Source: a virus. Taken from it: a stretch of DNA of 64,000 nt. Position numbers and translations under genes: made by a program. The stretch lies in the IMG/VR virus record IMGVR_UViG_3300007511_000019; one strand, given 5' to 3'. The notes beneath the pieces are model-generated. The model made no database searches. It was not told the DNA's origin and saw only the letters and a list, made by a program, of their open reading frames with translations. Positions 4,944-62,131 of the stretch are shown here, piece after piece (within the stretch, counting starts at the first letter, position 1; every line of letters starts with the position of its first letter).

Positions 4944-4982
4944 CCAAGGGCGGTCTTCGACTAACGAGTTCTAGGAATTCAA

Positions 4983-6292: not shown

Positions 6293-6306
6293 GCCCTATA
6301 CGGCTT

Positions 6307-6340
6307 CACACCGCCCTGATGGTATACTAGGGGCGGTGTG
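6307..6340 (+). terminator. 10-bp GC-rich hairpin (CACACCGCCC / GGGCGGTGTG) 15 nt after the 5468-6292 stop; the loop carries an extended -10-like TGGTATACT
   Basis: Perfect inverted repeat at 6307-6316 and 6331-6340. There is no strong U-tract, so its role as a terminator is tentative. Confidence 0.35.
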
Positions 6341-6619
6341 AGTTGGAGTGGTTTGAGTGCGGTCAGTAACAACCACTCTTAGCCGCTGTTGGTTTTGCAT
6401 AGTGGGGCCAACTTTGGCGACGGTCTCCCTTACCCCGCACGTAGACCGTTCTGGTAGTTAGTGGACGACGGCCTTATGGCCTCGAGGGTTTTTGCGTAAG
6501 GGCGTATCCTCCCCTTGAAATCGAACGGCGTTATAACCTGTGATACGGAGCCTTTGGGGTTCGTTGCTTACCTGAAAGCTTAAACGGTCAGGGTGTGACT
6601 ACCTAGCACCATTTTTATT

Positions 6620-6931
6620 ATGAACAAACCAAAACAAGACGAACTCAATCGAATGGCCATGTGCACTACACGTGGGCTAATCGAGGCTGTACTACACCGG
6701 TTTGCAGAAAACCTGGGGCCAGATTTAGCCGCTCCGGAGACCCCCGACTCCCTCCGCAAACTCGAGAAGTCTATTCAACAAGGAGCCGAATTCGTAGACC
6801 GGTTAGAGAACTCTTTCCAGGTCAACCCACAAGGTACCCATTGTCGTTTTACGCTACACTATCCTGGCACCGACCTGGATTTTGACTTCGAAGGGAAGCT
6901 CGTGGTCAACTCGCTCCCTAGCTCTGAATAA
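6620..6931 (+). CDS. hypothetical protein
   Basis: The ORF is 103 aa with an AT-rich leader and no obvious Shine-Dalgarno sequence. Confidence 0.35.
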   Translation: MNKPKQDELNRMAMCTTRGLIEAVLHRFAENLGPDLAAPETPDSLRKLEKSIQQGAEFVDRLENSFQVNPQGTHCRFTLHYPGTDLDFDFEGKLVVNSLPSSE

Positions 6932-7567: not shown

Positions 7568-7589
7568 CCGGTCCGGCGGTCACAACTAA

Positions 7590-7627
7590 CACCCCTGGAT
7601 TGTAAGAAATCCAGGGGTGTTTTTCTT
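7590..7627 (+). terminator. rho-independent terminator
   Basis: Perfect 11-bp stem (CACCCCTGGAT / ATCCAGGGGTG) with an 8-nt loop, followed by TTTTTCTT. Confidence 0.75.
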
Positions 7628-7631
7628 ACAT

Positions 7632-8078
7632 ATGACCAGCACAATATTGCCTCTACCTCCCTTGTTGCCGAATTTCAGGCGAGAGTTGCATCTCGACGAT
7701 GTTGCGGTAATCTTACCTGGGTTTCAAAACTACATAGACGCGGAATGGCGTGTACTGTACTCTGCAGCCATGAACGTACAGCTGCGTACGGAGTTACCTT
7801 TCTTCGACTTTACGCAGCTGTATCCAGGCACTCGGCAGTTTCGTCACTTCTGCCGAGTTATTGGTAACATAGACACCGCTTCCGCCGAGTATCAGTACGC
7901 GGCAAAAGACGCTGACAAGGTAATGGAAGATTACCGAACAGCAATGCTCGAAGCTGCCGCTGGCCAACGCCTTTCGTTTATGCAAGAGGCGTTCGACCGA
8001 ACACGGTTGGTCGGTAATATAGCTCGAGCGTACGGTAAGCTCCAAGCACTGTACGCAGACGCCCGTCTCGATCTGTAG
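7632..8078 (+). CDS. hypothetical protein (start moved to the ATG at 7632, because the tracker GTG at 7617 lies inside the terminator)
   Basis: ORF in the same frame, 148 aa. Confidence 0.35.
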   Translation: MTSTILPLPPLLPNFRRELHLDDVAVILPGFQNYIDAEWRVLYSAAMNVQLRTELPFFDFTQLYPGTRQFRHFCRVIGNIDTASAEYQYAAKDADKVMEDYRTAMLEAAAGQRLSFMQEAFDRTRLVGNIARAYGKLQALYADARLDL

Positions 8079-8098
8079 CCAGTTCCGGAGAGGTAGGG

Positions 8099-8128
8099 TA
8101 GAATCAGGTAGATCGCCACCTGATTCTA
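8099..8128 (+). promoter_or_regulatory. TAGAAT -10-like hexamer embedded in a perfect 11-bp inverted repeat (TAGAATCAGGT-N8-ACCTGATTCTA); candidate promoter/operator or 5' hairpin
   Basis: The arms are perfectly symmetrical at 8099-8109 and 8118-8128. TAGCCA lies 17 nt upstream of TAGAAT. The element sits between the stop at 8078 and the ATG at 8138. Confidence 0.5.
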
Positions 8129-8137
8129 GGAACCCAA

Positions 8138-8968
8138 ATGACTGATCCCAGTTTTGCGGTATTTGACGAAGACCGATTTCCTCCCACGAGTAACCTCGCC
8201 GAAGCATATCAGCAAGAGGTTACCTACGGATACGAGGTAATGAAGGAACGATCGGTAGTGATCGCTGGTCTCGCTCGTAACATCGAAAAGGCAGTCCCGA
8301 TAACAACCTCCCGCATTGAGCGGCTAGGAGAGCTGTTTCAGGACTACCGTGTGGTGCTTTACGAAAACGACTCTCGCGACCGTACGCCTGAATTGTTACA
8401 GGCTTGGGCTGATTCCAACTCCAGCGTAGACCTTACGTCTGAACGCCGGGGCGATCCTGTGAATCCGCAAATCCGGTGTCTAAACCGGGCAGCCCGTATG
8501 GCTCACTACCGAAATCAGTGCCGACTCAAAATTGCGGAGAAGTACCCTGACGTAGATAACGTCATCGTACTTGATACCGACCTGACTGGCGGGTGGAGCT
8601 ACGACGGCATCGCCCACACCTTTTCCAAGACCGAGGCATGGGACTTCGTTGGAAGCAACGGGATCATGTTCAAACACTTTAACGGCCAGAACAACTACCC
8701 AGTCTACTTCGACGTCTGGGCATTTCGCTGGCAAGGCACCTATCAACCTTGCTTTGCACCAAAGATCAATCCCCGACGCTGGAACCGGGGCGAAGCTTTA
8801 GTTCCGCTCTACTCCTGCTTCGGCGGGTTAGGGGTTTATCGTGTAGAGGCAATGTTGCGGTGCTCGTACGACGGTTCGGACTGCGAGCATGTCCCATTTC
8901 ACCGCAAAATGCGGGAAGCCGGAATGGGCCGTATTTTCATGAACCCGAGCCAAATCGTACTCTATTGA
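8138..8968 (+). CDS. putative glycosyltransferase (GT-A-like)
   Basis: The protein is 276 aa with a DXD-like motif (VIVLDTDLTG). Its layout loosely resembles polysaccharide glycosyl/mannosyl transferases. Support is weak. Confidence 0.3.
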   Translation: MTDPSFAVFDEDRFPPTSNLAEAYQQEVTYGYEVMKERSVVIAGLARNIEKAVPITTSRIERLGELFQDYRVVLYENDSRDRTPELLQAWADSNSSVDLTSERRGDPVNPQIRCLNRAARMAHYRNQCRLKIAEKYPDVDNVIVLDTDLTGGWSYDGIAHTFSKTEAWDFVGSNGIMFKHFNGQNNYPVYFDVWAFRWQGTYQPCFAPKINPRRWNRGEALVPLYSCFGGLGVYRVEAMLRCSYDGSDCEHVPFHRKMREAGMGRIFMNPSQIVLY

Positions 8969-12051: not shown

Positions 12052-12453
12052 ATGCCAACAACCAACCAACTGGTTCGCAAGAACCGCAGAAAGCCAAGGA
12101 ACAAGTCCAAGCACCGGCTGATGCAGGAAAACCCGCAGCGGCGAGGAACAGTGCTAAAGGCTTGGGTGATGTTGCCGCGTAAGCCCAACTCAGCTAACCG
12201 CAAGGTGTGTCGGGTCCGGTTTGCCGATGGCAACGAGGCGACGTGCCACATTCCGGGCGAAGGCCACAACATCGTGGAGCACAACACCGTGCTCGTGCGA
12301 GGCGGCGGCCCACCTGATCTGTCCGGCGTTAAGTACCGTGTTGTTCGCGGTACGCTTGACTGTATCGGCGTTACCGAAGGTGCTAACAAGCAGCGGCGAA
12401 ACCAAGGCCGCAGCAAGTACGGTTCGCCAAAACCGTCCAAAGCAAAGAAGTAG
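12052..12453 (+). CDS. rpsL: ribosomal protein uS12 (S12) homolog, bacterial type
   Basis: The match to bacterial S12 is near full length: [14 protein letters not shown]..., [51 protein letters not shown], and SKYG. An RBS (AGGAG) lies 9 nt upstream. Confidence 0.85.
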
Positions 12454-13147: not shown

Positions 13148-13219
13148 TCGGAGAGGTGGCTAGGGCGAGGGAGGGCTCTATCCGAACCACTCCCCCTCGC
13201 TTTAGCTATTAGCTGCTGC

Positions 13220-13247
13220 TTGACAAATTGCTCTTGACAGGGATAAT
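13220..13247 (+). promoter_or_regulatory. sigma70-like promoter: TTGACA-16 nt-GATAAT, with a second TTGACA copy
   Basis: TTGACA is at 13220-13225, a second TTGACA at 13234-13239, and GATAAT at 13242-13247. The preceding hairpin (13185-13220) resembles a terminator. AGGAG lies 7 nt before the ATG at 13286. Confidence 0.5.
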
Positions 13248-13285
13248 CTAAAGGAGAACCGGTTCATCCTCCTTAGGAGCAGCGA

Positions 13286-18660: not shown

Positions 18661-18689
18661 GGTCCCGACGAAAGTCGGGGCCTTTTTTT
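18661..18689 (+). terminator. rho-independent terminator whose U-tract is part of the conserved TTTTTTTAGCTATCAG motif
   Basis: Stem CCCGAC / GTCGGG with a GAAA loop and a 7-T run. Confidence 0.65.
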
Positions 18690-18711
18690 AGCTATCAGGG
18701 CCTGCTAGAAT
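18683..18711 (+). promoter_or_regulatory. conserved motif TTTTTTTAGCTATCAG followed 7 nt later by TAGAAT (copy 1)
   Basis: Identical 16-mers occur at 18683, 21930 and 62103. Here TAGAAT is at 18706-18711 and the ATG is at 18730. Confidence 0.5.
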
Positions 18712-18729: not shown

Positions 18730-20509
18730 ATGCCCAATATCTTGCTGCCTGAACTCAGCACTGACGCCGAAGAGATGTCTATGCTCGGATTCCCGATCGG
18801 GAATTTGGAGAAGGTATCATCACCCCTAACAGGGGGTTTGTGGCCAGAACTTCTTTCGTATCTTCCCGTTCGGGAAAATCGCCTCCATGGGGAAATTCAC
18901 GAAAAGAGGGGTGAAGACGCGAAAGGCATTCCAGACCGAAAGTACTATGGCGACCTATCTAGAGTTTCTCCGCAGTTACTGGACTTCGTTATCCAACGGC
19001 ATCTTGCCGAGAGAGCTGGCCCTCACTTTGATTTCCGATTCGGAGACCCCAAAGGGCTCTTCTCCTGGGCAACCAGAAAACCGATGCCCGGCATTGGCGG
19101 ACGAACCGCCCTATTCCAGCAGCCCATGCACTCCTACAAGTACAAAGATTGGGAGGGCACAATTCCTAGCGGACGCTATGGGGCTGGACGGGTTAAGAAA
19201 CAAGAGGATGGCAAACTTCTCATTACCAAAGCCAGTCCGGAATCTATCCACTTCACCATGGCCCACAAGAAGCACCCGCAACGCTTCGTGATGATCAAAC
19301 CGAAGGGCTGGAAAGATAAAGACTGGTTGCTTATCAACAAGACCCCGACTGAGCAATTGCCGTACGAGAAAGTACGGTACAAAAAGATTCCAGCGGAGCA
19401 GGTCGACAAGTACATCGGCCAAATGCAAAAAGGCGATACTCTGGAGGCAAAGGTTGACGGGGCCTCCTCGCTGATTAAACTAATGAAAGAGGGCGTCGAG
19501 GTGATGTCCTACCGTACGTCCAAGGAAACGGGCCGACCGATACTTCACACAGAAAGATTGCTTCATGGTCTCCCCGCTTACAACATCCCAGACGACCTGG
19601 TTGGCACGGTACTTAAAGGCGAACTCTACGGAGTGCGACCTGGAGGATCCGGAGATGGTGATGGCTCCGCTGACAAGGGAGACCCTCTACGCGGCCATGT
19701 TGCTGATGAACCTCAGCTGGCGGAAGGGAGCTTTGAACCTGACGGAGGGCGAGAAAGAGATACTCGAGTTTCAGAGAGAGCAGACCAGGAGGATGTTCCC
19801 GGAACTGTTAGGCCCCAAGACGACGGACTCGGAGAATATCTTCAAGAGGCTCTTTCCGCCGGTACCGGTAGACCAACTCAGCGAGAGCGAGTACTCCGCC
19901 CTCAAGAACTTGGAGGACTGCTCAACTCCTCCGTCGCCAAATCAATCCAAGACCAGCGAGAGCGACAAGTAAAACTCAGAAATGCCGTTTACGATATCCA
20001 ACAGCTAGGCAACAAACCAATCGACTGGCATGTGACTCCCCGGCTCGAGCGTAGGGATATGATTCGAAAAGTTCTTGAGCACCTACCGCCCGAGACGTTT
20101 CACATCTCAGAAGCCGCAGAGACGCCCGAAGCCGCCCAGAGACTCTGGCAACAAATACAGTCTGGTGAGCACCCGATTACTCGAGAGGGTGTAGTCATGC
20201 ATCCGCTACACGGTCCCCCCACGAAAGGAAAAATTTTAGAAGACGTAGACGTGTATTATCGCCAAGCATTTCCGGGCAAAGGTAAACACGAAGGATCGGG
20301 TGCTGGCGGCTTCGAATACTCACTCACACCTGACGGGCCTATAATTGGTAAGGTAGGAACAGGTTTCACGGACGAGTTACGCAGGTCCCTTTTCGAGAAC
20401 GATCAAGACTATGCCGGAAGGATTGCACGAATCCAATCGCAAGAACAGCTTCCTAGCGGAGCTTATCGAGCACCGAGCTTTCTGGCTTTTCACGAGGATC
20501 AACCTTATG
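18730..20509 (+). CDS. LigD-type 3'-phosphoesterase domain fused to an ATP-dependent polynucleotide ligase (no in-frame stop, so the 3' end is uncertain; the tracker ORF runs to 21927)
   Basis: PE domain: GPHFDFRFGDPKGLFSWATRKPMPG...DWEGTIPSGRYGAGRV matches the LigD phosphoesterase signature. Ligase motifs: I is KVDGAS, III is LKGELYG, IIIa is AVYDI, IV is EGVVMH, plus an OB fold (GKVGTGFTDE...RAPSFLAFHED). A low-complexity insert of about 110 aa lies between motifs III and IIIa. Confidence 0.6.
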
Positions 20510-21046
20510 CAACAACGAAACAGTCTAGGCAGGTTTCTGCAAGGACACAAATCCAGAACGACTCACGGACAAAGTGGAACGAAAACATACAAGGTGTGGG
20601 CGGGGATGAAACGCCGCTGCCTGGACCCAAAACGGCACAATTACAAACACTACGGAGGACGAGGCATAAAGATATGTGCAAGGTGGCGGGACTCCTTCGA
20701 GAACTTTCTGGAAGACATGGGAACGTGCCCAGACGGTTATTCGCTGGAGAGGGAGAACAACGACAAAGACTACTGTCCCACGAATTGCACTTGGATACCT
20801 CTCGAGAAACAGGCAGCAAACACTCGGAGCAACGTGTGCTTGACTTTTCGCGGCGAAACCAAGCATCTGACACAATGGGCGAGAGAGTCGGGAATCAGGC
20901 AGCAGACATTGACCAGGCGTCTTCAGCGAGGTTGGTCCGTGCAGCGTGCACTAACCGAGAAGCCAGTAGTAGGCAAAAATCAATTCTCGTCCAGCCAGAC
21001 CTCGGACTCACGTCTGAAAAACTCGCTGAACTCGGGATCGGAATAG
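20507..21046 (+). mobile_element. free-standing HNH/AP2-like homing-endonuclease gene with a C-terminal helix-turn-helix (+1 frame relative to the ligase ORF)
   Basis: YKVWAGMKRRCLDPKRHNYKHYGGRGIKICARWRDSFENFLEDMG...GYSLERENNDKDYCPTNCTWIPLEKQAAN is typical of phage HNH homing endonucleases, and LTQWARESGIRQQTLTRRLQRGWSVQRAL is an HTH tail. The ATG at 20507 coincides with the expected C-terminus of the ligase OB domain. Confidence 0.6.
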
Positions 21047-21049
21047 ATC

Positions 21050-21927
21050 CCGACGAGCACACAGCCCTGGAAAAAGAAGCCTCACTTGCTAGACTTCTGA
21101 CACTACCTGGCGTCAAGCACCTACTTCGCTGGCAGTCAAAGCTTGGTCGGAAGGCTAACGACTACTTGTGGAACAAACTGCTAACCGCAAATCGCCGAAC
21201 CGCGTTGGGCACCGCAGGCGTCGTAGGCGGTGCCGGTTACGGCGGCTACCGGATGGGCCAAGGCGACTGGCAAACTCCAGGCGACATTCTACACGACCCG
21301 ATCATCCAAAAGCCGCTGGAATGGTCTACAGTTATCCCGGAGAAATATAACATCCCATTGTGGACAGCAGCAGGTATTGCTGGTGGCCGTAGTGTGGGCC
21401 GTCACGCGGCCCAAGCCGCCGTAGGCAGTGCCAACGCGTTGCGGCGGCTAGTTACGATGCAGCCCTTATCGCAAGCGTTGTCTGGTCAAATCGGTAGTAC
21501 CCTTGGTGTTGCTGGGCCTATCTTAGGCGGTGCCAAAGGCGGCGTCGGAACCTACTACACTCACCGGGCAGTAGAGAAAGCCAGGGAAGCTGCTGAGCAG
21601 CCAACAGTACCTGAAGTCAAGCACAGCACAGATTCGCACTACCTGCGAGCCTTCTCCCAAGTAAACCCTGCACACCTTTACCGAGGCGACCAGTCTGCTC
21701 TGCGTAACGCTAGCAACTACATCAACGCCTTGTTAATACAGGGTCGGCAAAACGTCGCCAAAGCCTATAATACTGATAGCCTCAACCTGGCCTTGGCTCC
21801 GATGGGGCAACGTTGGCAACGAGCCTTGGCCAGTCTTGAGGGTTACGATCCCATCATGTCCAATCCCCTTGATCGGGTGTTGCACATGATGCCAGCAACC
21901 CCGCAGCTGAGTCGTCCGTACGTATGA
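21050..21927 (+). CDS. Gly/Ala-rich putative membrane/virion protein encoded by the 3' part of the 18730-21927 ORF (start undefined)
   Basis: Segments such as TAGVVGGAGYGG, AAGIAGGRSVG and GVAGPILGGAKGG resemble the downstream gene 21953-22792. There is no ATG near the 5' end, so an alternative start or continuation of an upstream exon is possible. Confidence 0.3.
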
Positions 21928-21929
21928 CC

Positions 21930-21945
21930 TTTTTTTAGCTATCAG
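21930..21945 (+). promoter_or_regulatory. conserved motif TTTTTTTAGCTATCAG (copy 2), directly after the stop at 21927
   Basis: Exact 16-mer. There is no clear upstream hairpin and no TAGAAT downstream (the ATG is at 21953). Confidence 0.4.
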
Positions 21946-22793: not shown

Positions 22794-23420
22794 GTGGCCA
22801 AGCGTTGCATCAAGATCTACGGGCTGACACGTACTTGCACCAACCTCACCATGCTGTTGCTACAGCGAAATTTCGATTGCACCGTCTGGTCGAACGAAGG
22901 TGACAGTTGGAAACACGGCAGAAACAAAATCGAGAACCGCAAGGTAAATCTACCTGAGCGTAACATGGTTGCAGAGGACATCCGCTTCGTTATCTGTACC
23001 AAACATCCATACACTTGGTTCTTCTCGCAGTTGCGTTGGGAGAACCGGCAAGGCGGATTTCGTCGGAATATGGACGACTTGCTCAAATACTCCAACACCT
23101 ATCAAGGGTGTCCGTTCAAAGCCTACAACGAACTCAACAAGCACTGGCTAACGCTTTCAGACGACCCAGCCATTTTGCAGCAAGTTACCCAGGAAGAACT
23201 GGAAGCAGACCAAGGCAAGGTATTAGCTCGCGTCGAAAAAGCATTCGACTTGCCCCGCCTTCATACAGATTGGCAGTTGGAGCACCGTAGTGTGCGGCCT
23301 AATCTGAAGCCGACTTCAGCTTACCAAAAACGGAATCAGCAGCTGTTGCCAGGGCAGAAAGCTTATGCGGACAGCAAGTTAGACCGCGAGACGTTACAAC
23401 TACTTGGCTACGAACTCTAG
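22794..23420 (+). CDS. hypothetical protein (GTG start with RBS GGAGGC; the tracker TTG start is at 22776)
   Basis: The N-terminus YGLTRTCTNLTML is Ser/Thr-rich and P-loop-like. Any resemblance to sulfotransferases is weak. Confidence 0.35.
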   Translation: MAKRCIKIYGLTRTCTNLTMLLLQRNFDCTVWSNEGDSWKHGRNKIENRKVNLPERNMVAEDIRFVICTKHPYTWFFSQLRWENRQGGFRRNMDDLLKYSNTYQGCPFKAYNELNKHWLTLSDDPAILQQVTQEELEADQGKVLARVEKAFDLPRLHTDWQLEHRSVRPNLKPTSAYQKRNQQLLPGQKAYADSKLDRETLQLLGYEL

Positions 23421-23446
23421 CGTACTTTCCCTCTGGAGGCTAGAAT
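23418..23446 (+). promoter_or_regulatory. candidate promoter TAGCGT-17 nt-TAGAAT
   Basis: It has the same TAGAAT hexamer and TAGC-type upstream element as the site at 8076-8104, and lies 43 nt before the ATG at 23489. Confidence 0.4.
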
Positions 23447-23488
23447 GTCTAAAGATAAAGTGCGGCAACCAACACACGAGGAAGACGG

Positions 23489-23953
23489 ATGACACATATT
23501 CTAGGTGGCAACACCCGGATGGCTATCCTTCGCTCAATGGACGGGAGAACCCAACTCCGGTTCTGGGCTGAGCGTGGCCTCATTTGCGTGGAGGACTCCC
23601 GCGATAACTCCTTCGAAACATTGTCAGTCAAGGAAGTATTGACACGTATGGCTGGTCTTAGCGATATGCTAGGCAACAAGACCACCTCCGACGAGTCGAT
23701 CATCGATAGTGCCTACCGCACGATGATTCAAAAGTACCTGGAAGACATGATCGACATCATCAAGCAGGCCCAGGAGCAGGGACAACCCACCGACGAGTCT
23801 GCCATTCGCGATCTTAATCGCCGACGAGCTAAGACGTTTACCTTACCTAACGGAGCCAAGGTAAGCCGCAACATCGCTTCGGCTGACGAAAACCGTTCTA
23901 GGAAGAAGGTAAAAGTACAGCCAAACGTTATTGACACTTCCGCTTTTGACTAA
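23489..23953 (+). CDS. hypothetical protein
   Basis: ORF of 154 aa. Confidence 0.4.
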   Translation: MTHILGGNTRMAILRSMDGRTQLRFWAERGLICVEDSRDNSFETLSVKEVLTRMAGLSDMLGNKTTSDESIIDSAYRTMIQKYLEDMIDIIKQAQEQGQPTDESAIRDLNRRRAKTFTLPNGAKVSRNIASADENRSRKKVKVQPNVIDTSAFD

Positions 23954-25116: not shown

Positions 25117-25894
25117 CCAACCTACCTTCTACGACGCTGTACAACACGTCACTGCTAAGGCTTTGCAACGTAAAGCTCTAGCTGGAGCAGGTACAGCGGC
25201 ACTAGCTGGTCTCGGTACTGGTGCAGGTCTACGAGGTATCCTCGGCCTGTTGGAAATGAGCAGGCAAGGTGCCCAGCCGCCCCAGGCTCAAGCCCCTACC
25301 GGTCAGATCGAGGTCCCGGTGGACGACGAGAAGATCGCTGCCTTGGCGGATTTCCTCAAAGGCGACTATGCCAAATCGACTTCTGGTGTGCCTTGGGCCA
25401 TTCCTGCCGCTGTTGGTGCCGGTGCTGCCGGAGCGTACGGTGGTTGGAAAGGTATCGACGCACTGCTCGAGCAAAGACGAAAAGGCGAACTAGAGGCTGA
25501 GCTTGAAAAAGCCAAGATGGACTACGAAGCTGCCTTGTCTGGCGACACCAAGTTAGCGGAAGACCTGGACGAACTCTACGACACAGTAGAGAAACAAGCT
25601 GTCTCCGCGTCAGACGCAGCAGGAACGGCTACAGGACTCTACGGAGTCTACGGCGGTACTTCAGCTTTGTTGGCCGCCATTATGGCTTACCAATACGGTA
25701 AGAAGCGACAACGCCGGTCCTTGCTTGAAGCGGCACAAGAGAAACGCCGCCGACAACGCTTTGCACGACAACCTGTGCCGATCCAAGTACGGCCAGTGCC
25801 TAAGCAGCATGAGCAGGACCCGCTGCAGGCAAGTAAGTCCCCGTTCCAGGCCGCACCTAGCTTGGACGAACAAGAAGATCAACTGGATAAGTAA
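25058..25894 (+). CDS. hypothetical Ala/Gly-rich membrane-associated protein with a charged C-terminus (start uncertain; the tracker start is 24986)
   Basis: An RBS (AAGGAA) precedes the ATG at 25058. It is TAATG-coupled to the RNAP gene at 25894. Confidence 0.35.
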   Translation: MTNLALVLKASRQSSEKSANQPTFYDAVQHVTAKALQRKALAGAGTAALAGLGTGAGLRGILGLLEMSRQGAQPPQAQAPTGQIEVPVDDEKIAALADFLKGDYAKSTSGVPWAIPAAVGAGAAGAYGGWKGIDALLEQRRKGELEAELEKAKMDYEAALSGDTKLAEDLDELYDTVEKQAVSASDAAGTATGLYGVYGGTSALLAAIMAYQYGKKRQRRSLLEAAQEKRRRQRFARQPVPIQVRPVPKQHEQDPLQASKSPFQAAPSLDEQEDQLDK

Positions 25895-28800
25895 TGCCAA
25901 ACATTCTGTCACCGCCCTCCGGCGTGCTAAGCGGGACCAAACCTGCTCTGCCGCAACCGGTACGTCCTCTGCAAAAAGAGGAACCGGAAAAGCGAGAGTT
26001 CGGTGACGCTTTGGCCACGCGGCGGCTTATCTACAACAACGTGCTGGCGTCGACTCAAACACTTGAGCCGATCTCTAACCAACGCCACACGCTACAACTG
26101 CGTGATGTTAAATACGCTGACGATCCCAAGTTCTCGTACAAGCAGCAAAAGGAAGCCATCCTCGGCGGTAAGAGTCTCAACCGTCGACTGCAAGGCACCT
26201 GGGAGCTGTCGGATAACGAAACTGGCGAAGTGCTTGACAGCAGGCCCGGCGTAGTTGCTCGTGTACCGCACCTGACGGATCGCGGTACGTTTATCCACAA
26301 CGGTAACGAGTACACCCTGTCCAACCAGATGCGGTTGCGGCCAGGCGTGTTTACCCGTGTCAAAGACAATGGAGAAATTGAAGCCCACGCAAACCTATTG
26401 CCGGGTAAAGGCGTCAGCCACCGGTACTTCCTAGACCCCGAGAAGGGTATTTTCCACATGCGGATGGGGCAGGCGAAAATACCGCTGATGCCTCTTCTCA
26501 AGTCGCTCGGAGCAACAGACAAACAATTGCAGGAAGCATGGGGCAACGAACTGTGGCAAGCTAACGCTCAAAAGGACAACCCAGGAACCCTATCGAAGCT
26601 GTACCAAAAACTGGTACGTAAGATTGACCCTGATGCCGACGAGCCAGCTAAACGCCTAGCCGTTGCCGAAGTCATGGAGAAAATGGAACTGGACCCCGAG
26701 GTTACACAACGAACCTTAGGTAACAGTTTCAACAGGATGGGGTTGGATGCGATTCTAGCCACCACCAATAAATTGCTCGCAGTATCCCGTGGAGAACAGG
26801 AGGTCGATGACCGTGATCATCTCGCTTATCAAAATGTCCTGGGCCCAGAAGATTTGTTCGCGGAACGTATCGCAAAGGATTATGGCGGACTCCGCCGACA
26901 ACTTTTGCATAGATCTAGCTTTAAGGGAGACTTGTCAGCCGCACAGTCCGGTATGCTAAGTCGCCAGTTAGAAGCCGCGTTACTCCATTCTGGATTAGGG
27001 CAAAGCCTTGAAGAAATCAACCCAGCAGACATCTTCGACAAACAATCAAGAATCTCACGTCTCGGTGAGGGCGGCATCCCGTCCATCGACGCCGTGCCAG
27101 ACGAAGCTAGGGCGGTTCAGCCGAGCCACTTGGCTTTCATGGACCCAGTACGCACGCCGGAATCATTTAAGGTCGGTGTGGATGTGCATATTGCCAACAC
27201 GGCTCGTAAAGGATCTGATGGCCGAATTTACTCACCGTTCGTTGATCCTCGTAGCGGAAAAGAGGTGTGGAAGTCGCCCCAGGACCTTGCAGATCTCACA
27301 GTCGCTTTTCCCGGCGAAATGCGTAGGGAAACTAAGCGGGTTGGTGCCATGCAAGGCGGCAAACTCAAGTTTGTCCCAAAACAGTCTGTGGACCTGGTTG
27401 TGCCCACTTTCGAAAACGCTTTCTCGCCGCTAGGTAACATGGTTCCCATGAAGTCAGCGGTCAAGGCCCAGCGTATGGCTATGGCTAGCCGTATGCTCAC
27501 ACAGGCCTTGCCGCTCGAGAACGCAGAGAGTCCGCTTGTACAGACCGGCATCTCTGGCGAAGAGGATACAAGTTACGAGCAGCGATATGGTCGTAAGATG
27601 GGTGCCGTCTTCGCCGACAAGCCAGGACGAGTAGTTTCAATAAGCGACCAAGGGATTAAGGTCAAGTACGACGACGGAACTACAGAAGAGAAGCAGCTCT
27701 ATAACAACTTCCCGTACAACCGCAAAAGCGTAACCGGTGACACTCGTATTGTGATCCGACGCAAGAATGGCGAACTGTGGACTGGATCAATCGATAAGTA
27801 CCACTGGGAAGATAGCGACCAAGTGCAGTCGGTGGACCCAGACTCCAAGCAGTCTGCCTGGAAACGCGTCACAGGTTACATTACGCACTGCAACGACAAA
27901 CAGCTGTTGCGGATAACTACTAAATCCGGGAGATCGGTCGTGGTCACGGAAGACCACAGCCTTATTACGCTGGACAAACACGGAGAACTGGTACCGGTCT
28001 ACCCTAAAGACTGCGAGATCGGGCTAACCCGCCTGCCTGTAGCCATGTTGCAGGGTCATCGATCTCGGCGACATGGCCAGGAGATTAGCAAAGACCCGAG
28101 CGGCATTCTGTGGGGGCTGTACGTAGCCGAGGGGCACTGTCCGCCTACCCAACCAGGGCTAGTTAACATTGCAGTAGAGCCAGACGACCGTGCAGAACAG
28201 GTGTTGGAAGTGGCTCGTCAGTGCGGTTATGAGGCGTACCGCAATGGCGGTAACGTATGCTTTACTGACCACGCCTTCGCCGCCAAGGCGACTGAGCACT
28301 TTGGCCACCTGTCGCACAACAAGCGAATTCCCGCCTGGGTGCTTGGTACTCCCGTCTGGTTTCGGGAAAGTTTTGTTCAAGGCTATATGGCTGGCGACGG
28401 GTGCTTGTGGGAGGACTCAAACGGGTCGCTACAGCTGCAGGCCGTTACGGTTTCTAGAGAGCTTCGCGACGGATTTGTCGAGTTGCTGTTAAGCCTAGGC
28501 ATTATGACGACGCTTTTCGATGCACCTAGAAAGCACCTCAACGACAACTGGCGTGACGCGTACGGTTGCCGCATAATCAGTAGCCACGTAGGGCGACTTC
28601 GTAAGTGGTTCTACTACGCAGACCGTGAGCGACAACTCCACGAGCTGCTAAAGCCTACGTATCGAGCCGCAAGCTTTGACCTGGTCCCGGTAGCCGCCGA
28701 GGCCCGTAAACTTCTGTACAAGGGTTATATCGGGACGGTTCCTAGCTATGTCTATAAGACCGCCAACCAGGGAGCAGTTGCTAAGCACCGGTTGAAAGAA

Positions 28801-31551
28801 AATACAGGCGTGTTCGGCGACTGGGCACGCTCTGATGTACTGTGGGACCCTATCGAAGAAATTATCCCTGTTGCTTACGAGGAACGAGTATATGACCTTT
28901 GCGTCCAGCACTCCGAGGCATTTTGCGTCAACGGCGGACTGCTCGTGCACAACACCTACATTCACAATACTCCGACAGTCAAGCCAGGTGACACCTTTGG
29001 TGTGGGGCAGGCCTTGGCTAAATCCAACTTTACCGATGCTGGTGGCACTACCGCTCTCGGTAAGAACGCTCGCGTTGCGTACATCCCATTCCGAGGGCAG
29101 AACTTCGAGGACGCTCTTGTGATCTCCGAGTCTTTCGCCAAGCGAATGAGTTCGGAGCACATGTATCAACACGGCGTGGACTTCGCAGACGACAAGAAAA
29201 CCAAACGACGCGACTATGTCTCACTCTTCCCATCCAAGTATGACAAACAAACTTTAGAGAGCATCGACGAAGACGGCGTCATCAAGCAGGGCACTATCGT
29301 CAGTCACGGCGACCCCCTTATTCTGTCGGCACGGCAGAAGGACGTTGCTCAGCATAAAGTCCATCGTCGCAAGGCTCCTGGCTTTACCGACCAATCCGAG
29401 ATCTGGAAGCACCATGCCCCTGGCGTGGTTACTGATGTATTCAAGGGCAAGAAGGGCACCACGGTCCTAGTCAAATCGCTCTCAGCTATGCAAAAGGGCG
29501 ACAAGCTATCAGGCCGCTACGGTGACAAAGGTGTTATCTCGGCGATCGTGCCGGATAACGAGATGCCCCACTCAAAGGACGGACAGGCTTTCGAAGTTTT
29601 GCTTAACCCTCTTGGTATTATCTCCCGTACAAACCCGGCCCAAATGGTTGAGGCCGCACTGGGAAAGATTGCTGCCAAGACAGGGAAACCTTACAAGGTG
29701 GTTGATTTTGAAGACATACAAGATTTGACGGACTTTGCGATCCAGGAACTCAAGAAGAACCAAATGGAGGACCTGGAGGACATAACCGACCCGTCGAACG
29801 AGAGAAAGATTCCCGGCGTCTTCACCGGCAACCGCTTCTTCATGAAACTCCACCATACGGCGGAGGGAAAGGGGCAGGGTCGTGGTACAGGAGGTTATAC
29901 GATGGAAGGTACTCCCGCGAAAGGCGGTGAGACCGGTTCCAAGCGAATTTCACTTCTCGATAACAACGCACTCCTCTCGCACGGTGCCACTGAGGTTCTT
30001 CGAGACGCAGGAGCAATTCGAGGACAACGTAATGAGGAGTTCTGGCTCCCATTCATGCGTGGTGTTACTCCCCCAAAGCCCAAGGTACCCATTGTCTATC
30101 AAAAGTTCGTGAACGAGCTTAAGGCATCAGGTATTAACGTGGTGGAGGACGGAACACAAACACACATTATGGCCCTCACCGACAAAGACGTCGGTGAGCT
30201 GGCTGGACAGAGATACCTCAAGAGCGGCGACACGGTTCAATTTGAAAAAGGATTGAAACCGATCACCGGCGGTCTGTTCGACCCCGCACTAACCGGCGGA
30301 CACAACGGCAATCGCTGGTCGGCAATCAAACTCGCAGAACCTATGCCGAACCCGGTAATGGAAGAACCCATTCGCCGCGTCTTGGGACTTACACAAAAGC
30401 GATTCGAGGCCGTCCTATCCGGGCAGGAAGAGTTGCAAGGACACCGTGGTCCTGCAGCCTTTACCAAGGCCCTAGGTAAGATGGACCTGGATAAAGAGAT
30501 TGCTTACGCACAAGCGGAATTCAAATCCGGACGTAAGGCCTCTCGAGATATGGCCATACGTAAACTGGGTTACCTCAAGTCCGCCAAGAAACTAGGCATA
30601 CACCCTAAAGACTGGATGCTGACCAAGGCTCCTGTATTGCCCCCGATGTTTCGTCCGGTGTCGGTGATGTCCGACAACCGCCTTCCTTTGGTATCGGATG
30701 CTAATTTCCTTTACAAGGAATTACTGGAAGCTAACGACAACCTAACAGAGATGTCAAAAGAGGTGGACGATGTCGCCGACGAACGTCTTGCGGTCTACAA
30801 CGCTTTCAAAGCAGTCACAGGACTTGGAGATCCAATACACCCAAAACTGCAGGAGAAACGCGTCAAGGGGATTCTTAAGCACGTATTTGGTTCTAGCCCT
30901 AAGCTGGGTGCTGTGCAGCGTAGGCTTGTATCCAGTACTGTGGATCTTGTTGGCCGTGCAGTTATTACTCCTAACCCTGACCTGGACATGGACCATGTTG
31001 GGCTTCCAGAGAATAGAGCCTGGGACATCTACAAGAACTTCATCGTACGAAGACTCAAGCGGCGGGGTATGCCGCTGGTCGAAGCGGCCAAGCAGGTCGA
31101 GAACCGTTCAGAAGTAGCTAAACAAGAGTTGGTCAAAGAGATGGGCGAACGGCCCGTGGTGATCAACCGAGCCCCGGTTTTGCACCGTTTCGGCATCATG
31201 GCTTTCTACCCCAGACTTACCAAGAGCGACACTCTGGAGGTCTCCCCGTTGATCGTGAAAGGCTTCGGAGCTGACTTCGATGGGGATGCTATGCAATACC
31301 ACGTACCGGTCTCCGACGAGGCCAAAGACGAGGCCGTGGACCGTATGTTGCCAAGTCGCAACCTCTTAAGCCCGGCTGACTTCAAGTCGCCTATCCACGT
31401 ACCGAGTCAAGAATACACCGGTGGATTGTACGCTGCGTCGTCCACCAAATCTAAGCGGCGGGTGCGTACCTTCCGCAATACCAAGGATATGCTCGCAGCC
31501 TATCGGCGTGGTGAGCTAGACATCAACGATGAAGTGGAGGTGATGGAGTAG
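25894..31551 (+). CDS. rpoB: phage multisubunit RNA polymerase: beta subunit fused to the N-terminal (rpoC1/gamma-like) part of beta', interrupted by an intein
   Basis: Beta blocks include LTDRGTFIHNGNEY...RPGVFT, GKNARVAYIPFRGQNFEDALVISE, GDKLSGRYGDKGVIS...LLNPLGIISRTNP and GNRFFMKLHHTAEGKGQGRGTGGYT. Beta' blocks follow in the same ORF: PITGGLFDP, VLPPMFRPV, NRAPVLHRFGIMAFYP and GADFDGDAMQYHVP. The ORF ends about 90 aa after the DFDGD motif. Confidence 0.85.
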   Translation: MPNILSPPSGVLSGTKPALPQPVRPLQKEEPEKREFGDALATRRLIYNNVLASTQTLEPISNQRHTLQLRDVKYADDPKFSYKQQKEAILGGKSLNRRLQGTWELSDNETGEVLDSRPGVVARVPHLTDRGTFIHNGNEYTLSNQMRLRPGVFTRVKDNGEIEAHANLLPGKGVSHRYFLDPEKGIFHMRMGQAKIPLMPLLKSLGATDKQLQEAWGNELWQANAQKDNPGTLSKLYQKLVRKIDPDADEPAKRLAVAEVMEKMELDPEVTQRTLGNSFNRMGLDAILATTNKLLAVSRGEQEVDDRDHLAYQNVLGPEDLFAERIAKDYGGLRRQLLHRSSFKGDLSAAQSGMLSRQLEAALLHSGLGQSLEEINPADIFDKQSRISRLGEGGIPSIDAVPDEARAVQPSHLAFMDPVRTPESFKVGVDVHIANTARKGSDGRIYSPFVDPRSGKEVWKSPQDLADLTVAFPGEMRRETKRVGAMQGGKLKFVPKQSVDLVVPTFENAFSPLGNMVPMKSAVKAQRMAMASRMLTQALPLENAESPLVQTGISGEEDTSYEQRYGRKMGAVFADKPGRVVSISDQGIKVKYDDGTTEEKQLYNNFPYNRKSVTGDTRIVIRRKNGELWTGSIDKYHWEDSDQVQSVDPDSKQSAWKRVTGYITHCNDKQLLRITTKSGRSVVVTEDHSLITLDKHGELVPVYPKDCEIGLTRLPVAMLQGHRSRRHGQEISKDPSGILWGLYVAEGHCPPTQPGLVNIAVEPDDRAEQVLEVARQCGYEAYRNGGNVCFTDHAFAAKATEHFGHLSHNKRIPAWVLGTPVWFRESFVQGYMAGDGCLWEDSNGSLQLQAVTVSRELRDGFVELLLSLGIMTTLFDAPRKHLNDNWRDAYGCRIISSHVGRLRKWFYYADRERQLHELLKPTYRAASFDLVPVAAEARKLLYKGYIGTVPSYVYKTANQGAVAKHRLKENTGVFGDWARSDVLWDPIEEIIPVAYEERVYDLCVQHSEAFCVNGGLLVHNTYIHNTPTVKPGDTFGVGQALAKSNFTDAGGTTALGKNARVAYIPFRGQNFEDALVISESFAKRMSSEHMYQHGVDFADDKKTKRRDYVSLFPSKYDKQTLESIDEDGVIKQGTIVSHGDPLILSARQKDVAQHKVHRRKAPGFTDQSEIWKHHAPGVVTDVFKGKKGTTVLVKSLSAMQKGDKLSGRYGDKGVISAIVPDNEMPHSKDGQAFEVLLNPLGIISRTNPAQMVEAALGKIAAKTGKPYKVVDFEDIQDLTDFAIQELKKNQMEDLEDITDPSNERKIPGVFTGNRFFMKLHHTAEGKGQGRGTGGYTMEGTPAKGGETGSKRISLLDNNALLSHGATEVLRDAGAIRGQRNEEFWLPFMRGVTPPKPKVPIVYQKFVNELKASGINVVEDGTQTHIMALTDKDVGELAGQRYLKSGDTVQFEKGLKPITGGLFDPALTGGHNGNRWSAIKLAEPMPNPVMEEPIRRVLGLTQKRFEAVLSGQEELQGHRGPAAFTKALGKMDLDKEIAYAQAEFKSGRKASRDMAIRKLGYLKSAKKLGIHPKDWMLTKAPVLPPMFRPVSVMSDNRLPLVSDANFLYKELLEANDNLTEMSKEVDDVADERLAVYNAFKAVTGLGDPIHPKLQEKRVKGILKHVFGSSPKLGAVQRRLVSSTVDLVGRAVITPNPDLDMDHVGLPENRAWDIYKNFIVRRLKRRGMPLVEAAKQVENRSEVAKQELVKEMGERPVVINRAPVLHRFGIMAFYPRLTKSDTLEVSPLIVKGFGADFDGDAMQYHVPVSDEAKDEAVDRMLPSRNLLSPADFKSPIHVPSQEYTGGLYAASSTKSKRRVRTFRNTKDMLAAYRRGELDINDEVEVME
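27727..28953 (+). mobile_element. intein (409 aa) with a LAGLIDADG homing-endonuclease domain in RNAP beta
   Basis: The flanks (...YNRK and TYIHNTPTV) match the beta region ...YTRSNQN / TCINQMPCV. Hint block A is SVTGDTRIV (Ser1). The C-terminus is ...LLVHN with Thr at +1. LAGLIDADG-like motifs are ILWGLYVAEGH and FVQGYMAGDGCL. Confidence 0.7.
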
Positions 31552-32792: not shown

Positions 32793-33045
32793 GCAATTGC
32801 GGGCTCGAATGGCCCGACCAGCTACCCCCACACTCAAAGTTCTGTCTGTCTGGGTACAGCACGGAGTAGAACAGCAGTTACTGCCCATAGCATCTGGCGA
32901 TGACGACGCCCAGCTGCGTGGACTGCTTGCAAATTGGGAGCAGCAACTGGACTACGGGGAAATGGTCGCTTCAAACATGCGGTATCTAGGGCGGCACCGG
33001 ATTGTAACAGTTCCTTTCATCGGACGGCAAAATGGCAAAGCGTAA
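32761..33045 (+). CDS. hypothetical protein
   Basis: The 94-aa ORF overlaps both neighbouring genes. Confidence 0.25.
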   Translation: MALQGGFGVPEQLRARMARPATPTLKVLSVWVQHGVEQQLLPIASGDDDAQLRGLLANWEQQLDYGEMVASNMRYLGRHRIVTVPFIGRQNGKA

Positions 33046-36000
33046 GGCTACTGCTGGCCAGATCCTCATCAACGAAGTGTTGCCTGAAGACATGCGGGAC
33101 TACAACCGCACGCTCGACAAGAAGGGTCTGTCCAAACTGCTTACCGAGGTAGCCCAGAAGCACCCGGACGACTATCGAGATATCTCCCACCGACTGGGCA
33201 AGATCGGACGCGAAGCCGCCTTTACATCAGGCGGCAATTCTTTTGGCCTAGCCCACATGAAGCGTGCTTTGGTCGCCCGCAAAATGCAGTCTGGCCTGAA
33301 AACCCGTATCAACGCATTGCTGGACAACGACAGCCTTGACGATGACGCAAGAGACGCAGCCATTATCAAACTGGTTGGTAAGGCCATGCCGCAGCTGCAG
33401 GACGCCATTCTTGAAGAGAGCGACGCCGAAGGTAACCCGCTCGCCCAACAACTCAAAGGTGCCGGTCGCGGTAACAAGATGAACCTCTCTTCGTTACGAG
33501 GTAGCGACGGGCTGTATCAAGATCACCGTGACAACATCATCCCGATTCCTGTACTCAAGAGTTACTCAGAAGGGCTCTCGCCGCTAGAGTATTGGGGCGG
33601 GACTTACGGTGCCCGGCAAGGTGTTATGGCGGTTAAGTTCGCTACACAGGACGCTGGCTTTCTATGCCTTGCGGAAGGCACGGAAGTGCGGATGGCTGAC
33701 TGGAGCACCAAGCCTATCGAAGAGATCCAAGTAGGTGACACGGTACTGGGAGCTAACAAGTACGGAACGACCTTTCCCGTCAAAGTGACCGCCACTTTTG
33801 ACAACGGTGTGCGGCAGCTAACAAAGTTCCGCTTCCGGTACGGCAAGGCCCGCAACCGTTTTATTGAGGTGACAGCCACCGACAAACACAAAGCCCTGGC
33901 CGAGCATCTTCGTCGCCGACGCAAACGCCCTGATCCTAGGTTACATATTGAGATCAGCCAAGACGTTATGCCAATGGGTACGTTCGAACGACGGACAGTT
34001 TCGCGGCACGCTCTAGTCCCACCTCAAGGCTACTCCTGCCCGCAAACCGGTCCGAGAGACGAGTACTGCTGGCTGCTAGGCCTCCTGACTGCCGAAGGCG
34101 GTTTAACTACGAATCACGTAGGACTGTCTTGTGGAGATCCGGAGCTGCTAAAAGAGGCTCGACGGTTGACAAAGCCAATGGGTTTCGAGATACGCCAAAA
34201 GAAAAATGCCCAGTACGAATACAGCTTTTATGACACCCAGCCCTTGCCCGCAAAAGGTAAGCCTGGCGGAGGCATTGCCACCGGTTCTTTCCGAAACCGG
34301 CTCAAGGCCAAGCTGGCTGAACACGGGCTGCTAGGTAAACTGGCCCAGGACAAGGAATTGCCCGAACAAATTTGGGCGTGGCCCAACTCACATGTCTGCG
34401 GTTTTCTTCGTTGGCTCTTCGCCGGTGACGGGGGTGTCAGTCCGTCGAACAACGCTACGCTGCCTGTAGTCACGTTGGGCATGACAGCGGAGCCGGTTGT
34501 GCGGGGCGTCGAACGCTTGTTGGCCGATCGTTTTGGCATCTACGGTCAGATTAGTATGGACAAGGCGGAGAACTGCCCTAAAGCCAACCATGACTGCCAT
34601 GTTCTTGCCATTTCCGATCCCCAGTCGGTGGAACGCTTCGCACAACACATAGGTTTTGTTGCTGGTAGTAAGCAGGCCCGTCTAATGACGCTGCTGGCCG
34701 AGGCCGACCCTTGCGAGAGGCACAGCCGCTTTCTCTTCCATTACCTCGACTCCGAGGACGTTGGCGAAGGTCCTACTTACGATATCGAGGTCGACAACGA
34801 GGACCACCTATTTGTACTGGCCAACGGGGCAATTGTCTCCAATTCCAAACAACTCAATCAAATCGCACACCGCTCAGTCGTGATCGACGAAGACAGCGAT
34901 GGCGAGCCCGACACCCTCATTGGTCTGCCTGTCGATACTGACGACATGGACAGCGAGGGTTCGTTGTTGGCGGCTCCTGCGGGCAAGTATAAACGAAACA
35001 CAGTGCTCACTCCTAAGATCATCCGCGAATTGAAGCAAGCGGGAATCAAACGGCTCTTGGTGCGAAGCCCAGCAATCGGTGGTACGCCAGACGGCGGTGT
35101 GTACGGCAGGGACGTCGGTATTAGAGAATTCGGTCGACTTCCTACACGAGGCGAAAATGTTGGACTCACAGCTGCTCAAGCCCTATCTGAACCGCTGTCT
35201 CAGGCTCAACTCTCGGCGAAGCATACAGGCGGGGTGGCTGGCGAATCCCAAGCAGTCTCTGGATTTGATTACATCAACCAACTCGTACAAGTTCCCAAAA
35301 CCTTCAAAGGCGGAGCAGCCCATTCAACGCTTGACGGTATCGTACAAGCTGTCGAGCCCGCTCCTGCCGGTGGTACCTATGTCTCCATCAACGGAGAACG
35401 ACATTACATCGCAGGAGGGTTCGAGCCAAAGGTTAAGAAAGGCGATCACGTCGAAGCTGGAGACGTTATTTCTGACGGCACTCCGAACCCTTCGTTGATT
35501 ACCAAACACAAAGGCGTGGGCGAAGGCCGACGTTACTACATCAAGTCGTTTGCTGACGCCATGAGTTCTGCTGGCATCAAATCCCACCGCCGCAACGTCG
35601 AACTACTAGCGAGAGGGCTTATCAACCACGTTCGCCTTACAGACGAGATCGGGGACTTTGCACCTGACGACGTGGTGCCCTACTCCATGATGGCCGCTCG
35701 GTACATTCCCCGAGAAGGGTTCAAAACAATGGATCCCAATCGTGCAACAGGTAAGTATCTTGAGAGGCCCTACCTGCACTATTCGATCGGCACCAAGATC
35801 CGCCCATCGATGATGAAAGACTTCAAAGACTTTGGCGTGAAAAGCGTTGATGTACATGACGACGAACCGCCTTTTGAACCAGAAATGATCCGAGGCATGG
35901 CTAACCTGCAACACGACCCAGACTGGATGACCCGTATGTTCGGTTCTGGTCTGAAAGGTAGCCTGCTTCGCGGTGTACATCGAGGCGGCACTTCGTCGGA

Positions 36001-36094
36001 GACCGGAACCAGCTTTGTGGCCGGTCGGGCGAAGGCCGTTGACTTTGGTCGTACAGGTATTATCCAAACTCCGAAGGAGCCTCCCAAACCATGA
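33032..36094 (+). CDS. rpoC: RNA polymerase beta' C-terminal (rpoC2-like) subunit, interrupted by an intein
   Basis: [12 protein letters not shown]...KKGLSKLL matches beta' at AILNEILP...KKAISKML. Further matches are [25 protein letters not shown] to [41 protein letters not shown] to TRRLVDVAQDLVVTEDD, and [23 protein letters not shown] to [23 protein letters not shown]. Confidence 0.85.
   Translation: [1020 protein letters not shown]
33665..34843 (+). mobile_element. intein (393 aa) with a LAGLIDADG endonuclease domain in RNAP beta'
   Basis: It begins [10 protein letters not shown] (Cys1, Hint block A) directly after the GFL of the GYL|TRRL-equivalent site, and ends ...NGAIVSN with Ser at +1. 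LAGLIDADG-like motifs are [14 protein letters not shown] and [12 protein letters not shown]. There is no penultimate His. Confidence 0.65.
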
Positions 36095-62067: not shown

Positions 62068-62109
62068 GCCCTGGGTGCCACTGCCCCGGCCCCAGGGCGG
62101 GCTTTTTTT
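62068..62109 (+). terminator. rho-independent terminator (8-bp stem GCCCTGGG / CCCAGGGC plus T7) leading into motif copy 3
   Basis: It is preceded by a second hairpin at about 62041-62062. Confidence 0.6.
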
Positions 62110-62131
62110 AGCTATCAGCGACCGGTAGAAT
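62103..62131 (+). promoter_or_regulatory. conserved motif TTTTTTTAGCTATCAG followed 7 nt later by TAGAAT (copy 3)
   Basis: The geometry is identical to copy 1. The ATG is at 62138. Confidence 0.5.

Follow-up and report, generated by a model that had tools for sequence, protein, structure and literature searches.

A possible sigma-70-type promoter in the 5' arm of a predicted RNA hairpin upstream of a glycosyltransferase gene in an uncultivated giant phage

We investigated a 59-nucleotide (nt) spacer in a 64,000-nt stretch of viral DNA, IMG/VR record IMGVR_UViG_3300007511_000019, the whole of which is here called the window. The spacer lies between the stop codon of an open reading frame (ORF) of 148 amino acids (aa) and the ATG of a glycosyltransferase gene at position 8138, and it holds a promoter-like signal and a hairpin. 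This element is real and under selection. The reading that we favour, tentatively and with a probability of roughly 40%, is that an RNA hairpin carries a gene-specific sigma-70-type promoter in its 5' arm and distinguishes read-through messenger RNA (mRNA) from promoter-initiated mRNA.

The signal starts with the -35-like hexamer TAGCCA (8076-8081, + strand), whose first three bases are the TAG stop codon (8076-8078) of the upstream ORF (7632-8078, + strand), which has no known domain and was called as a gene also on identical contigs. A 17-nt spacer (8082-8098) separates it from the -10-like hexamer TAGAAT (8099-8104, + strand), which matches TATAAT at five of six positions and fits the TAnnnT rule, with A at position 2 and T at position 6. 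TAGAAT doubles as the first 6 nt of the left, or 5', arm TAGAATCAGGT (8099-8109) of an inverted repeat for which a repeat search returned 11 nt per arm, 100% complementarity, and 8 nt between the arms. The loop AGATCGCC (8110-8117) and the right, or 3', arm ACCTGATTCTA (8118-8128, corresponding to -20 to -10 relative to the ATG) are followed by GGAACCCAA and then by the ATG. The initial annotation of this DNA had reported TAGCCA-17-TAGAAT fused to a perfect 11-bp inverted repeat, with the -10-like hexamer inside the left arm and the whole placed between a stop codon and the next ATG, as well as a second site, TAGCGT-17-TAGAAT, at 23418-23446; all of this was confirmed in the sequence. The gene proposed to be regulated encodes a 276-aa, GT2 / CAP59-like glycosyltransferase (8138-8968, + strand), the bacterial homologues of which are mostly found in Planctomycetota metagenome-assembled genomes. 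It belongs to a gene-dense phage segment in which every gene is on the + strand and the first 18 kb carry sugar-nucleotide and glycan genes, and syntenic relatives were found on contigs of up to 233 kb.

Both the repeat and the hexamers exceeded chance expectation. Counting perfect inverted repeats with arms of 11 bp or more and loops of 3-12 nt, we found six distinct ones in the window, whereas 300 dinucleotide shuffles averaged 0.12, an excess of about 50-fold. TAGAAT occurred four times on the + strand (8099, 18706, 23441, and 62126), always in intergenic sequence, which makes up 4.3% of bases (hypergeometric p = 2.4e-6), and always 6-42 nt 5' of an ORF start; its intergenic enrichment ranked third among 4038 hexamers, behind terminator T-runs and TTAGCT. 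TAGCCA matches TTGACA at four of six positions and, 17 bp from the -10 hexamer, is weak when taken alone, but the hexamer pair recurs at 23525-23498. TAGCCA-N15-18-TAGAAT was thereby present twice in the window (8076, + strand, N17; 23525, - strand, N16) and never in 100 shuffles, and hexamer counts predict about 0.02 copies of TAGCCA-N16/17-TAGAAT. In the loci of clade relatives, TATAAT was the third most enriched hexamer 5' of genes (17 upstream and 32 coding occurrences; p = 1e-11), and the best canonical promoter in the window is a textbook TTGACA-16-GATAAT at 13220-13247. Therefore, it seems that this clade uses promoters of the -10/-35 type. The leader within 13148-13285 also carries CCTCCTT, resembling an anti-Shine-Dalgarno sequence, between AAGGAG and the true TAGGAG, and its ribosome-binding site (RBS) has a high opening energy (13.4 kcal/mol). 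Considering the window as a whole, TAGCCA was over-represented (48 vs. 24), mostly on the - strand.

Conservation was assessed against the sole close relative compared, the metagenomic contig L091, whose glycosyltransferase is 85% identical in protein sequence. The spacer was identical at 54 of 59 positions (91.5%), compared with 68% identity for the upstream ORF, 83% for the glycosyltransferase DNA, and 55-68% at third codon positions; the excess over third codon positions was significant (binomial p between 7e-5 and 1e-9). Six differences were found: one at position 4 of the -35-like hexamer (TAGTCA in L091), two at spacer bases, two in the loop (one base inserted and another substituted), and T8127>G, through which an outer pair of the stem is broken. 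L091 retained the -10 hexamer, a stem core of 9 bp, the Shine-Dalgarno sequence, and the distance to the ATG, and the 23 nt 5' of the hairpin were as conserved as the hairpin itself. Given the 1-nt loop insertion, a coding explanation of this conservation is ruled out. The identical metagenomic contigs L081-L083 have an identical spacer and therefore add no conservation information. No close relative of the glycosyltransferase or the 148-aa ORF was found in IMG/VR, and megablast and tblastn searches found no close relative of the locus among isolated phages. Most of the 70 metagenome matches were bacterial homologues without synteny. Several of those from high-GC bacteria (L104, L106, L109, L113, L121, L126, and L128) had in common a conserved upstream sequence block, TTTTTGCCGATGGC ... 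GCCGCTACCATCC, probably a conserved promoter or regulatory site in this group of bacteria.

Folded as RNA, positions 8093-8140 gave -19.1 kcal/mol (z = -3.9), with a centroid equal to the minimum-energy structure. Both folds predicted a stem of 10-11 bp, a 4-nt AGGA bulge (8128-8131), and a 4-bp outer helix (8096-8099 / 8132-8135, the 3' strand being ACCC), such that the 5' arm with its outer-helix strand occupies 8096-8109 and the Shine-Dalgarno sequence AGGA(A) together with the opposite outer-helix strand occupies 8128-8135. The same arrangement was predicted in L091, which folded alike (-17.2 kcal/mol, z = -3.4). Opening the region from -15 to +5 cost 14.0 kcal/mol on a long RNA versus 6.4 kcal/mol on a short one, and the long-RNA value ranked sixth among 59 genes (mean 8.5, sd 3.4), while the promoter-initiated leader was predicted to be nearly unstructured (-2.4 kcal/mol). 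When the 5' arm alone was shuffled, the cost of opening -20 to +5 fell from 17.3 to 9.6 kcal/mol in the window, from 13.4 to 7.5 in L091, and from 15.8 to 7.9 and 11.6 to 7.2 in the more distant relatives L290 and L088, indicating that the 5' arm contributes 4.5-8 kcal/mol. Searches with Rfam 15 gave no match in the window at gathering thresholds and none at the element at E <= 1, and a transfer RNA scan of the window gave no match. A different perfect 11-bp inverted repeat (6306-6316 / 6331-6341; -28 kcal/mol, z = -4.8) opens a 360-nt region without a called gene at 6293-6652; it has TATACT in its loop and no T-run, and the region overall is mildly structured (z = -2.0), with nothing meaningful from Rfam.

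Nine distant relatives, with glycosyltransferases 55-60% identical to that of the window, were also compared (L084, L088, L089, L161, L164, L165, L286, L288, and L290); for L084, L088, L288, and L290 the identity was 55-58%. A TAnnnT hexamer ended 23-33 nt before the ATG in the window and in every relative with a spacer (L084, L088, L288, and L290; L091 has TAGAAT itself) except L161, which carries a different, terminator-like hairpin at the same place. Three lineages place the -10-like hexamer in the 5' arm of a hairpin and have the opposite arm next to or over the RBS. The hairpin of L290 is 19 bp long, includes several G.U pairs, and pairs both the Shine-Dalgarno GGAA and the AUG (-22.1 kcal/mol, z = -4.3); its 5' arm contains TAGAAT, which again starts with a stop codon. 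The L088 stem has 8 bp, one of them a G.U pair, and extends as far as the Shine-Dalgarno sequence; its 5' arm is overlapped by TACACT, and the loop opens with AGATC, like the loop of the window. L084 has TAAACT with weak pairing, and in L288 a 5-bp stem has TACGGT in its loop. The tolerance of G.U pairs on the + strand in these relatives fits an RNA rather than a DNA dyad. A GATC sequence in the loop had led us to consider a Dam site, an idea that we dropped given that GATC was over-represented throughout the window (332 sites vs. 227 +/- 15 in shuffles), and the loop copy is therefore not special; the cyanobacterial highly iterated palindrome HIP1 (GCGATCGC) was not enriched.

For the promoter proposed in the initial annotation, support was indirect, coming from the intergenic placement of all four TAGAAT copies, the second hexamer pair, the conservation in L091, and the retention of TAnnnT in relatives. 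The match of 9/12 to the consensus contributes nothing by itself, since generic sigma-70 consensus matches were not enriched (5 found vs. 11.9 expected, 1-20 kb). From the sequences, their conservation, and the predicted folds, we infer promoter activity, a start site, a read-through RNA, an effect on translation, and the polymerase that would read the signal (host or the phage's own). Sigma-70-type promoters start transcription 6-8 nt past the -10 hexamer, which puts the predicted start of the window RNA on the opening bases of the loop, 8110-8112 (A, G, A). By the same rule, RNA of L088 would likewise begin where its loop begins, and RNA of L290 close to the end of the 5' arm. TAGCCA-17-TAGAAT would thus be an internal promoter for the glycosyltransferase gene, with its -10 hexamer serving also as hairpin 5' arm. 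In RNA reading through from the upstream ORF, 8096-8135 would fold and cover -42 to -3 relative to the AUG, exposing just the 4-nt Shine-Dalgarno bulge, so that ribosome loading would be hindered; a further possible role of the hairpin is protection of the upstream message at its 3' end. Promoter-initiated RNA would begin in the loop, would lack the 5' arm, and would have an open RBS, and efficient glycosyltransferase translation would be expected only when the gene's own promoter fires. The initial annotation had also suggested a stability hairpin at the 5' end of the mRNA, a proposal incompatible with its own promoter: with a start about 7 nt past TAGAAT, that is, in the loop, the mRNA lacks the left arm, and the hairpin can form only on RNA begun further upstream.

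Several observations weigh against a promoter in the hairpin arm. No terminator separates 7632 from 8138, but the 148-aa ORF is preceded by a strong, canonical intrinsic terminator with a 14-bp stem and a T-run (7588-7631, + strand, or 7588-7621 in narrower limits), and read-through RNA may therefore be scarce and a translational gate less necessary. In L091, two T-A pairs of this terminator are replaced by C-G in compensatory changes and two C-G pairs by U.G, and the ATG of the 148-aa ORF, which has no Shine-Dalgarno sequence, lies 10 nt past its stem. The stem of the element, on the other hand, showed no compensatory change in L091, where one outer pair is lost, and this comparison therefore cannot separate an RNA stem from a protein site. 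In the window, as in L091, the Shine-Dalgarno sequence is bulged between helices and the AUG is free; both being unpaired, any block would act through the flanking helices only. The energy needed for opening, although high, is not extreme (z about +1.6). Among the distant relatives, the hairpins of L088 and L084 were not significant against shuffles (z = -1.2 and -1.5, respectively), four loci (L089, L164, L165, and L286) have no spacer, and the hairpins cannot be aligned with that of the window and could be independent inventions. Furthermore, the TAGAAT at 23441 overlaps the Shine-Dalgarno sequence and ATG of a mini-ORF, and not every TAGAAT need be a -10 hexamer. Finally, TAGAAT could lie in the arm merely as the complement of a recurrent ribosome-site sequence, TTCTAGGAA, which is also present at 4967-4975, before the ATG at 4983.

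The proposed arrangement has a known counterpart in phage T4 genes e, soc, 49, I-TevI, and segB and in Aeh1 mobE, where the 5' strand of an RBS-closing hairpin contains a promoter (PMC3014915, PMC2988022). As in those cases, the window gene lies 3' of another gene with no terminator between them, and an internal promoter, here predicted only, is located in the DNA for the hairpin 5' strand at the translation initiation region (PMC3014915, PMC2988022). Long transcripts would likewise fold and promoter-initiated ones would lack the 5' strand, which in the window is a matter of predicted geometry. L290 matches the T4 design in full, with both the Shine-Dalgarno sequence and the AUG paired. In contrast to T4, the predicted window promoter looks sigma-70-like (TAGAAT) and does not resemble a T4 late promoter (TATAAATA), predicted helices flank the Shine-Dalgarno sequence and AUG instead of pairing them, and the phage is an unrelated giant phage with its own multisubunit RNA polymerase. 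The geometry of the window is the same as that of seg43(25) in Aeromonas phage 25, in which a very stable hairpin sits directly 5' of an unsequestered RBS at the stem base, but no promoter is reported in the 5' arm of the seg43(25) hairpin (PMC2988022).

The initial annotation had suggested an operator for a dimeric regulator, in which a phage or host protein would bind TAGAATCAGGT-N8-ACCTGATTCTA as DNA and occlude the -10 hexamer and start site. Like the dyad operators over -10/+1 (lac O1, LexA boxes, and phage repressor operators), the window dyad spans the -10 hexamer and predicted start, its perfect 11-bp repeat covering -12 to +18 of the predicted promoter, and both arm cores have the same sequence in L091 with no covariation, as expected of a protein site. 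We nevertheless found no support for this proposal and consider it unlikely. The half-site was not repeated beyond chance, with 12 matches at up to two mismatches against 11.7 expected in the 64-kb window of a genome that may be about 200 kb, and the dyad is single-copy; no related dyad was found in IMG/VR; and the neighbouring ORFs gave no match to a DNA-binding domain, whether helix-turn-helix or another kind, although a regulator could be encoded elsewhere or by the host. The G.U pairs in the hairpins of relatives, imperfections that fit RNA, would be asymmetric mismatches in DNA. With half-site centres 19 bp apart, a 30-bp site is long for a simple dimer. A host operator was rejected as well, given that matches to the dyad core in 185,579 bacterial and archaeal species genomes were at chance level, apart from one unrelated repeat in an Acidimicrobiales metagenome-assembled genome, CALHTF01. 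That genome has many copies of the palindrome AAACTGAATCAGGTGTCWGACACCTGATTCAGTTT (L303, L304, L313, L314, L319, L330, L357, L368, L377, and L393), which looks like a family of repetitive extragenic palindromic (REP)-type repeats unrelated to the phage element.

The hairpin could also act without any link to a promoter, as a stability element or 3'-end barrier for the message of the 148-aa ORF or as a constitutive damper of the glycosyltransferase, in which case TAGAAT would merely complement the ribosome site UUCUAGGAA. We regard this as doubtful, to about the same degree as a protein-binding dyad. The hairpin begins 21 nt past the stop codon, a position that, like its GC-containing stem-loop, recalls the stabiliser hairpins between genes of phage operons and intrinsic terminators; intergenic hairpins are common elsewhere in the window, the terminator-like hairpin of L161 occupies the equivalent place, and the recurrence of TTCTAGGAA before the ATG at 4983 is as this explanation would have it. 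However, all + strand copies of the stem hexamer are intergenic and immediately precede genes, and at three of these sites there is no pairing of this kind; the TAGCCA-N16/17-TAGAAT combination occurs in duplicate, and the unpaired 23 nt 5' of the stem are equally conserved in L091. TAnnnT is moreover kept at a set distance from the ATG even though the hairpins of the relatives differ.

It is also conceivable, if quite improbable, that TAGCCA-N16/17-TAGAAT represents a dedicated promoter class for the phage's own sigma-containing multisubunit RNA polymerase, with the dyad gating the polymerase on DNA as an extruded hairpin or through face-to-face -10 hexamers; this would amount to a promoter architecture specific to the phage and not to an RNA switch of the T4 type. 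The window encodes a multisubunit RNA polymerase in two ORFs, a fusion of beta with the N-terminal part of beta' (1885 aa; 25894-31551, + strand), interrupted by an intein with a LAGLIDADG domain, and the C-terminal part of beta' (1020 aa; 33032-36094, + strand), with a second intein (Hint/LAGLIDADG). The nearest isolates are Vibrio phage D69 and Salmonella phage Arash, with about 30% RNA polymerase identity. The virion proteins of Arash include beta, beta', and a sigma factor (PMC10585845, and annotation), and none of the window motifs was found in the 44 kb of Arash that were examined.

A transcription terminator, an RNase III site, or an N4-type extruded DNA hairpin promoter would each agree with a stable stem in an intergenic position, and we judge this group very unlikely. 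The sequence after the stem (GGAACCCAAATG; tail GGAACCCAA) has no T-run, unlike that of genuine terminators of the window, and the terminator scan did not list the site. RNase III sites usually comprise about two helical turns, some 20 bp or more of double-stranded RNA, for which a stem of 11 bp, or 14-15 bp with the outer helix and bulge, is too short; the RNase III hairpin offered in the initial annotation is therefore improbable. The promoter hairpins of phage N4 combine stems of 5-7 bp and loops of 3 nt with a sequence that is conserved and repeated, whereas the window dyad is present once.

Less probable still are face-to-face -10 hexamers at this site, with the inverted TAGAAT (8128-8123, - strand) acting as a leftward promoter that gives rise to antisense RNA or transcriptional interference, as is possible at 23525-23498. 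Both TAGAAT sites that lack the T-run/AGCTATCAG module described below have an inverted TAGAAT 18 or 51 nt downstream, and the inverted copy at 23498 has its own TAGCCA -35-like hexamer. At 8128, however, there is no - strand -35-like hexamer (ACTGGG occupies the 17-nt position), no - strand gene, and no terminator, and the - strand hexamer in L091 is TCGAAT, which has lost the key A at position 2. A chance palindrome without function, for which nothing speaks beyond a weak overall enrichment of sigma-70 consensus matches, is contradicted by the shuffle statistics and by purifying selection and is effectively refuted by the conservation in L091.

None of the three other TAGAAT sites had a hairpin significant against shuffles. 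At 18683-18711 and 62103-62131 (both + strand), the hexamer is part of the same module, in which a terminator T-run is followed by AGCTATCAG, 7 nt, and TAGAAT, located 18 nt before the ATG of a ligase gene in the first case and 6 nt before the ATG at 62138 in the second. The ligase gene (18730-21927) encodes a 1065-aa ORF with a LigD 3'-phosphoesterase domain and an ATP-dependent DNA ligase. The TAGCGT-17-TAGAAT site at 23418-23446 (+ strand; z = -0.26) reads TAGAATG and thereby supplies the ATG of a 15-codon mini-ORF behind GGAGG. This mini-ORF (MSKDKVRQPTHEEDG; 23445-23492), with GGAGG as its Shine-Dalgarno sequence, overlaps the ATG of the gene at 23489..23953 via ATGA. The - strand pair TAGCCA-16-TAGAAT (23498-23525) lies inside the first codons of that gene (codons 4-12) and faces the + strand TAGAAT at 23441. 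From a predicted start near 23491, it would give an antisense RNA of about 35-45 nt over the Shine-Dalgarno sequence and AUG, ending at a weak terminator-like hairpin (23460-23477). This antisense copy at 23525 was not conserved in L266, a 38%-identical relative.

The module itself is widespread. Three exact copies of a 16-mer, TTTTTTTAGCTATCAG, which occurs clade-wide following terminators, were present in the window (18683-18698, 21930-21945, and 62103-62118), all of them intergenic, and a variant, CTTTAGCTATTAG, was found at 13200-13212. An exact scan of IMG/VR for TTTTTTTAGCTATCAG gave at least 120 matches (loci L166-L285) on contigs of 31-64% GC. Among the matches listed, many contigs were 180-220 kb long, several had 2-4 copies, and many encoded homologues of the RNA polymerase and structural proteins of the window phage; the T-run was the tail of a stable hairpin in 74 of the 104 unique instances, again among the matches listed. 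TTTTTTTAGCTATCAG appears to be a conserved terminator-plus-AGCTATCAG module, and its retention across differing host GC contents suggests recognition by a phage-encoded factor. A -10 or -35 hexamer followed it at variable distance, and a fixed spacing between the T-run/AGCTATCAG module and the -10 hexamer was looked for but not found. Elsewhere in the window, a 133-aa ORF (12052-12453) matched ribosomal protein S12/S23 (Pfam PF00164, E = 2.9e-23), and the phage appears to encode an S12 homologue.

The element is a local regulatory detail and a known kind of device, with no new principle. If a promoter does lie in the 5' arm of the hairpin, the timing or level of the glycosyltransferase would be controlled apart from that of neighbouring genes, and TAGAAT / TAGCCA-N17-TAGAAT would provide a first handle on the promoter grammar of this clade. 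It would also mean that the T4-style device of a promoter within a hairpin works in an unrelated clade of uncultivated giant phages with their own multisubunit RNA polymerase.

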